NCBI GenBank assembly: GCA_951406725.2
Contig: OX597840.1
Location: forward strand, 37,882,001 to 37,946,000
Length of the DNA: 64,000 bases
Origin: Octopus vulgaris
Lineage: Eukaryota
Reading direction: 5' to 3'
Below, in pieces: positions 54,797 through 55,124 of the stretch (position 1 is the first letter of the stretch; each line of letters opens with the position of its first letter). Both the position numbers and the translations under genes were made by a program. The notes beneath the pieces are model-generated. The model did no database searches, was not told where the DNA came from, and worked only from the letters and a program-made list of their open reading frames with translations.

Positions 54797-55124
54797 CGCA
54801 TTTTTGCCATTTGAATATGGCTAACCCATAAGGGTGGATGCTACTGTAGTTTGTAGCCCCAGGAAGATATCTCCTCCAGCTGGCTATAGACACACTATCT
54901 GTGTCCTCTCAGTATTTGTGAAGGGAAGTCATCCTCCCCGTCTTCAACACATGATACACACGTACCCGAGTTTCAAGGTCTTTACCTTTCATCAGCGTGT
55001 GACAATCATGGTTGTCGACGAGAAGTCAGATCCCTTCACAAATACATATACTTTTTCCAGTGTCGATTGACACTGATATTGAAAAAGTGAAATCAAACAT
55101 ATTCAAATGGCAAAAATGCGTCAC
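54793..55124. mobile_element. TIR-bounded, rod-folding non-coding element containing a hammerhead ribozyme
   Basis: Perfect 27-bp TIRs (54793-54819 and 55098-55124), an inner perfect 15-bp inverted repeat (54912-54926 and 55031-55045), and an HHR at the apex. Confidence 0.85.
54957..55001 (-). ncRNA. Type I hammerhead ribozyme, intact
   Basis: Minus strand CACACG CUGAUGA AAGGU-AAAG-ACCUU GAAA CUCGG GUA|CGUGUG. Stem I extends through an internal loop into CAUGAU/AUCAUG. Predicted cut at 54963/54962. Confidence 0.88.

Follow-up and report, generated by a model that had tools for sequence, protein, structure and literature searches.

The units of mussel retrozymes measure 350–390 bp, and a helper for animal retrozymes has been proposed from their co-occurrence with Penelope-like elements (PLEs) and from pLTR similarity, according to the available parts of two accounts (PMC7229834; 10.64898/2026.07.22.740005). 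Eight of nine Xenopus elements gave no cleavage in vitro (10.64898/2026.07.22.740005). Tails and inverted arms are a known pattern of PLEs (PMC8557442). In the anole Poseidon element, reverse transcriptase (RT) begins internally, in a stem-loop, at two sites that bound the tail, and the RNA must extend past those start sites; the available text of this one in vitro study narrows the signal for a Penelope-type RT only to a 150-nt stretch (PMC11167929). Here we describe a predicted RNA fold from Octopus vulgaris that bears on how animal retrozymes are mobilised and on which RNA feature a Penelope-type RT recognises. The element class is already known; what this analysis adds is the structure around the start sites. 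We found no description of the motif or of cephalopod retrozymes in the literature, where the supplementary figures of PMC7229834 and PMC11167929 could show similar folds.

The window analysed is a stretch of 64,000 nucleotides (contig OX597840.1, positions 37,882,001 to 37,946,000). Its segment 54813–54906 had been singled out from the letters alone as a motif of three structured domains, with G-U wobbles favouring the plus strand, not matched to a hammerhead core and shared by two different repeat families. The similarity is real. Local alignments to the two arms of a foldback at 18.9–19.2 kb and to 58846–58915 scored 58.5, 62.5 and 46.5 against shuffle means of 24–27, and for each of the three none of 1000 dinucleotide shuffles scored as high. 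Domains 2 and 3, together with the inner hairpin of domain 1, likewise occur in the window as originally written. The two families, by comparison, proved to be subfamilies of one lineage, as their whole units are homologous and about 50–53% identical. Subfamily A repeats head to tail with a period of 352 nt, often also inverted, between (TA)n runs. Subfamily B, the foldback family, has a period of 343 nt, carries its hammerhead on the same strand and in the same place, and aligns with A from end to end at about 50% identity. Eighteen true tandem monomers measure 335–363 nt, and no ORF is common to the copies. Judged by its sequence, the motif forms a conserved domain at the end of a non-coding non-LTR retrozyme unit of ~350 nt that bears a hammerhead. 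It is thus part of a hammerhead element rather than something apart from it, and its main covarying helix uses a tail outside 54813–54906.

This lineage comprises at least 11 subfamilies and at least 1829 copies, in (TA)n. A pattern built from D3 and the start of D2 gave 1829 exact matches against none for the reversed control, and a variant that leaves out the two main families gave 186 against 6. First-look candidates numbered 1342 for subfamily A and 1214 for B, and the distant subfamily K has 2769 candidates of its own. We collected 243 near-complete copies and grouped 218 of them into the 11 subfamilies, with 25 outside the consensuses. Subfamilies D–J were found with the pattern that requires D3, and A, B and K without it; the former collection may miss divergent relatives that lack the pattern. 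A hammerhead core, recognised by sequence, keeps a constant position in A (within reach of 35 of 63 copies), B (21 of 66), C, D, E, F, G, J and K; a regular expression saw none in H and I. Subfamilies B and C have the U3-A8 variant of the core, and loop 3 is palindromic in B and K but not in A. Copies of different subfamilies lie side by side in one TA tract (L020, L156, L074/L079), and PLE fragments often share a tract with retrozyme copies (L010, L022, L190, L242), as is expected from a common (TA)n target. Contigs from four of 24 sequencing runs cover the whole monomer, and all four sets include end-to-start joints, which cannot tell a circle from tandem DNA. A pattern scan for outside relatives returned 11 metagenome-contig hits, all chance on inspection, and none in viral contigs.

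On the hammerhead strand the 5′ ends vary from copy to copy, and there are two fixed 3′ ends, separated by about 45–55 nt. Terminal arms of subfamily A end 24–27 nt after the anchor in 20 of 41 cases and 66–73 nt after it in another 19, and arms of subfamily B at 22–25 nt (17 of 35) or 73–83 nt (9 of 35). We identified 81 two-armed insertions, seven of them unclassifiable; one short and one tailed end are found in 63 of the 74 that could be classified (binomial p = 5e-10 against independence). Both the A copy of the window (54793–55169) and its B foldback (18870–19176) are insertions of this type. A (TA)4 run lies within 25 nt of the end in 111 of the 243 copies. The lineage displays 5′ truncation, an inverted arm, a tail at one end and a microsatellite target, all of them parts of the PLE insertion footprint, and the short-plus-tailed pattern is, by the layout of its ends, the Penelope two-start footprint. 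The features of the window copies are collected in Table 1.

Table 1. Retrozyme copies in the window and their predicted features (positions in the window).
Feature	Position	Strand	Remarks
Subfamily A insertion, arm 1	54793..55099	-	307 nt of the 352-nt unit; RNA sense minus; first fixed end 54793 against (TA)n
Subfamily A insertion, arm 2 (inverted)	55098..55169	+	last 27 nt of the unit plus 45-nt tail; second fixed end against (TA)n
P1 3′ strand, within arm 2	55136-55142	+	arm 2 also holds the tail hairpin
D3 hairpin	54889..54905	-	6 bp; stem sequence-invariant, no double changes
D2	54854..54886	-	two helices (outer 5 bp; inner 6 bp, capped by a GAUR loop) around a 4x3 internal loop; covaries
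P1 5′ strand (3′ half of domain 1 as first drawn)	54840..54846	-	partner is the tail in unit-length RNA
Hairpin Ha (inner hairpin of domain 1 as first drawn)	54824..54835	-	inside P1 multiloop
Hairpin Hb	54806..54821	-	inside P1 multiloop; takes up the ATGGC first placed in an outer stem
Type I hammerhead, very short helix III	54957..55001	-	predicted; at tip of long rod
Predicted hammerhead cut	between 54963 and 54962	-	170 nt before first fixed end
snRNA-type promoter word	55071..55081	-	11 nt identical to U1 word; putative promoter
Two-armed subfamily B insertion (foldback)	18870..19176	both	both arms cut off before hammerhead
Foldback arm with part of tail	19025-18870	-	subfamily B
Foldback arm with short end	19051-19176	+	subfamily B
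Single-arm B/C-type copy	58823..58915	-	short end abuts (TA)n; truncated inside D2

When the tail was part of the input, RNAalifold recovered D3, Ha, Hb and, unprompted, P1, both from the subfamily consensuses and from 34 natural copies; D2 and the tail hairpin were recovered from the consensuses alone. Over the 34 copies the whole model is 87.1% paired against 82.9 ± 0.4 in shuffles, and 21 of its 37 pairs show double changes, compared with 12.8 in shuffles, values reached by 0 of 500 shuffles, in a control that ignores relatedness and for a structure derived from the same sequences it was scored on. Slid-partner controls were at most 47% paired. In the same copies P1 alone is 87.5% paired against 80.7 in shuffles, with 35 double-change cells against 12.4 (0 of 500) and double changes at seven of its eight pairs (12 of 500). 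These changes fall on separate branches (B/C, H/I and K), with G-C/G-U/A-U flips within A–J; P1 of subfamily K, taken from a consensus of six tailed copies, has one double change and one G-U. P1 pairs the 3′ half of the original domain 1 with the 45-nt tail beyond the first fixed end and closes a multiloop that contains this end, and the second fixed end lies just past the tail hairpin, in the subfamilies examined. The inner helix of D2 and hairpin Ha also covary. D3 never shows a double change, and selection on its stem may act on the sequence itself and not on an RNA structure. The isolated 94-nt segment has a minimum-energy fold that is neither the one first drawn nor the D3-D2-P1 model. 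Taken together, the paired changes across subfamilies support a model in which an RNA fold straddles both fixed ends, and most helices pass the covariation test against shuffles that the original prediction had called for.

Some details of that prediction did not survive. The outer ATGGC/GCCGT stem of domain 1 was rejected, as its pairing in the 34 copies is at the level of shuffles on either strand (plus, 76.1% against a mean of 75.0%, with 203 of 1000 shuffles as high; minus, 53.4%, with 99 of 500 as high). It had looked plausible because a strand of Hb resembles the P1 partner. A GATG/YATC pseudoknot was likewise discarded: four perfect pairs form in only 3–4 of the 11 consensuses, there is no double change, and it needs bases of P1. 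The internal loop CCA/AGCT, described as invariant, is kept in 10 of the 11 subfamily consensuses and changed in K, and the inner helix of domain 2 exists but is better drawn with 6 bp and a GAUR loop than with 5 bp and a 6-nt loop.

These corrections bear on the suggestion that the motif is a new self-cleaving or ligating ribozyme. A conserved internal loop and a GAUR loop set among covarying stems would suit such a ribozyme, and so would the result of the Rfam search, in which no covariance model matched the motif. The three hits to 54790–55170 have E values of 5.9–8.7, far below gathering scores, although the blank is weak given that the neighbouring hammerhead was also missed; over the whole window the 150 hits listed of 317 are microsatellite-driven miRNA noise. 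However, the unit already has a hammerhead, the PLE tail pattern accounts for its two fixed ends, K departs from the internal loop, the pseudoknot lacks support and few unpaired bases of the motif are invariant. We therefore regard a new ribozyme as scarcely credible. The wider idea behind the original prediction, of a conserved functional RNA such as an RT-recognition signal, has the best support of the readings considered. A SINE head of the tRNA-, 7SL- or 5S-derived kind does not describe the unit, which is circularly permuted with variable 5′ ends and has no Rfam hit of these types.

The functional RNA is most likely the minus strand, that of the hammerhead, because the fixed ends, an snRNA-type promoter word and the folding of monomers all point to it and away from the plus strand first proposed. 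The fixed ends are 3′ ends on minus, and 17 of the 18 true tandem monomers fold more stably as circles on this strand, a difference to which base composition may add. G-U wobbles had been said to favour plus; over the seven supported helices there are 83 G-U cells on the hammerhead strand against 65 on plus, counts that do not decide the strand, and the A-C in domain 2 of the window copy is a G-U on minus. Could the structure nevertheless act on the opposite strand, as first-strand cDNA or antisense RNA, for instance in second-strand priming or template jumps? Watson-Crick covariation is blind to strand, and P1 still pairs at 84.9% on plus. Moreover, two A-C pairs of subfamily C become G-U/G-T on plus, and the alifold energy of the motif alone is slightly lower there (-39.7 against -36.9). 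Set against this, the ends, the hammerhead and the promoter word all define minus as the template, the monomers and the G-U count lean the same way, and the one stem specific to plus fails. An opposite-strand role is thus very improbable.

The promoter word is on the minus strand, within one arm of a conserved hairpin of the unit; in A it precedes the hammerhead core by 82 nt. Its 11 nt at 55071–55081 are identical to the word found 57–59 nt upstream of the U1 genes of this genome. The proximal word occurs 57–61 nt upstream of 28 of 30 U1/U2 loci, compared with 1 of 690 control windows, and 6–7 of its 7 letters are matched in six of the ten retrozyme monomers scored. Its position implies a minus-strand start near 55021, about 27 nt before the hammerhead, and a putative promoter activity. 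Newt satellite 2 has an snRNA-type promoter. Distal elements of snRNA promoters sit about 230–250 nt upstream of the start, and in a tandem array D3 lies about 230–250 nt upstream of the presumed start. D3 (with part of D2 or the tail) might then be a site in DNA, either a promoter element or an endonuclease site, leaving only P1, Ha and Hb to act as RNA. As an invariant 6-bp inverted repeat with a 5–6-nt spacer and no double change, D3 does resemble the site of a dimeric DNA-binding protein, and the tail of the D. virilis element is needed for endonuclease recognition of plasmid DNA (as cited in the available text of PMC11167929). However, the 500–600 nt upstream of all 30 U1/U2 loci contain no D3 pattern, D2 word or profile hit, whereas the proximal word is present in 28, and the inner helix of D2 covaries. 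We consider a DNA-level role for D3 decidedly unlikely.

An L1/Tx1-like LINE with a zf-RVT domain inserts, in the same sense, at one fixed site of the retrozyme about 27 nt ahead of the hammerhead core, equivalent to window position 55021 (loci L008:1723 onward, L010/L061:8100-9499 and L285-L314). Motif hits are present in 28 of 30 LINE loci, the junction is at the same unit position in 20 A-type loci, and two loci have target duplications of 19 and 12 bp. The promoter word of the retrozyme and that of U1/U2 stand at the same distance from the LINE target site, and at the two of 15 U2 loci without the word (L320, L327) a sequence resembling the LINE 3′ end lies directly before the U2 start. 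We rejected this LINE as a helper, as the rest of the unit flanks it at four of six resolved 5′ ends, two of them with a target duplication.

We favour, with rather better than even confidence, the reading that the motif is an RNA signal by which a Penelope-type RT binds and chooses its start sites. Going by sequence and position, the unit would be transcribed from the snRNA-type promoter, beginning about 27 nt before the hammerhead. By analogy with related elements, the hammerhead would cut multimers to monomers, which may circularise. In the monomer, D3 and D2 would precede P1, whose pairing with the tail across the first fixed end has the support of covariation; P1 would close the multiloop of Ha, Hb and the first fixed end, with the tail hairpin and second fixed end to follow. 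A borrowed protein, presumably of Penelope type, would then cut each strand of (TA)n once and start one cDNA per site. Two priming sites would yield the head-to-head arms with one short and one tailed end that make up the observed footprint. P1 needs the tail, and therefore a selected template would have to run past the first start site, that is, initiation would be internal.

A more specific proposal is that D3, D2, the P1 multiloop and the tail hairpin form a landing pad with two sites, on which a Penelope-type RT/endonuclease, possibly a dimer, is positioned. This we put forward only tentatively, as we do its corollary, that both nicked TA-repeat strands might prime on one retrozyme RNA at two set points, which seems to us possible but doubtful. 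If true, no earlier RNA recognition element defined by covariation would be known for this class of RT, a relative of telomerase, and the signal would have been evolved by a parasite without a copy in its helper.

The fold could instead serve the life of the RNA, through circle stability, a host protein, ligation, export or storage, with the ends set by something nearby. Animal retrozymes accumulate as abundant, highly paired circles (available text of PMC7229834). The whole octopus monomer is predicted to be highly paired, its rod keeps pairing while the sequence drifts, and the ends of autonomous PLEs examined in this genome are without the motif. Conservation among A, B and K, however, peaks next to the two ends, in D3 (14 of 19 columns), D2 (17 of 35) and the tail (17 of 34), compared with 18 of 33 in the hammerhead core, and is low in the rod (7 of 53 and 11 of 57). 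Moreover, in all subfamilies examined the P1 multiloop encloses the first end, and the second directly follows the tail hairpin. A role confined to the RNA itself is therefore rather unlikely, and an RT signal remains our preferred reading.

Lastly, we searched for a helper. Neptune-type PLEs of this genome combine an intact frame of 781 aa with minimal hammerheads, insert into (TA)n and have a tail of ~40 nt. One young two-ORF family of this type (L122-L125) has its 781-aa RT/GIY-YIG frame open in many copies, a U3-A8 minimal hammerhead and two 3′ ends separated by about 40 nt. Among the Neptune copies seen the 3′ ends are short; all they have in common with the motif is a word of 8 nt and a small tail hairpin, similarities that were both chosen post hoc. 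The motif was absent from the autonomous PLEs at 30 GIY-YIG loci (one not a PLE), 8 extended loci, 4 further and 20 more, in a search that scored 150 of 6136 GIY-YIG candidates and used no Hydra, Naiad or Poseidon queries, a result that counts against the RT-signal reading. The GIY-YIG hit at L109 resembles a host SLX1-type nuclease exon rather than a PLE. PLE protein hits accompany 8 of 210 retrozyme loci, all as separate insertions. Ten cases in which the motif lies near a PLE frame (L010, L022, L110/L126, L162/L234, L190/L231, L230/L232, L203/L233, L242, L250 and L281) were considered as joint elements and rejected: the motif is a separate insertion, in opposite sense, downstream, or split from the frame by TA or other repeats.

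Elsewhere in the window there are more strings resembling a hammerhead core, at about 19290–19345 (-), 21880 (+), 15775 (+), 49970 (-) and 17120 (+). They are probably the 3′ ends of other PLE families, and profile and covariance searches show them to be unrelated to the motif. Between TA runs at 55216–55592 lies a short element that begins TACAGG and has a CCTGTA-like end; its text resembles the 3′ end of a Tc1/mariner transposase.

How, then, does the octopus unit compare with known systems? In the available parts of the accounts, animal non-LTR retrozymes are likewise non-coding tandem units of 340–360 nt with one type I hammerhead and a weak helix III, have a GC content below 45%, occur mostly as dispersed monomers and dimers, and co-occur with PLEs. 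Unlike here, the same parts describe neither a conserved structure beyond the hammerhead nor a pair of fixed ends, and no covariation between subfamilies (PMC7229834; 10.64898/2026.07.22.740005). Xenopus retrozymes are described as having a matching autonomous pLTR (10.64898/2026.07.22.740005), whereas none was found in the octopus loci searched. As far as the available texts go, the pLTR hammerheads of EN+ PLEs share the small type I form, the U3-A8 core and, with B and K, the palindromic loop 3, and the elements themselves share inverted 5′-truncated arms, a tail at one end only and a bias to (TA)n. The octopus unit differs from them in having no ORF, in full units that stand head to tail without protein sequence, and in the non-palindromic loop 3 of A (PMC4209133; PMC8557442). 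Stem-loops shared by the 3′ ends of SINEs and LINEs likewise combine a borrowed RT with a conserved structure close to its starting point (PMC4494074, in part). In the octopus unit, by contrast, the start is internal and double, the structure pairs across it, and no partner sharing the structure was found.

The nearest parallel to the ends is the anole Poseidon element PAc, in which a hammerhead lies upstream, two internal starts bound the tail, targets are AT-rich and RNA past the start is needed. PAc is autonomous, its start region lies in an ORF, and its starts were demonstrated in vitro, whereas those of the octopus unit are deduced from copy ends. According to the available text, the PAc starts lie 85–92 nt after the cut and its tail is 30–40 nt long (PMC11167929); the corresponding lengths in the octopus unit are 170 nt and 45–55 nt, and the region is non-coding. 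Here, 11 or more diverged subfamilies allow the region around both start sites to be modelled pair by pair and supply naturally occurring compensatory pairs, so that disruption and rescue mutants can be chosen directly.
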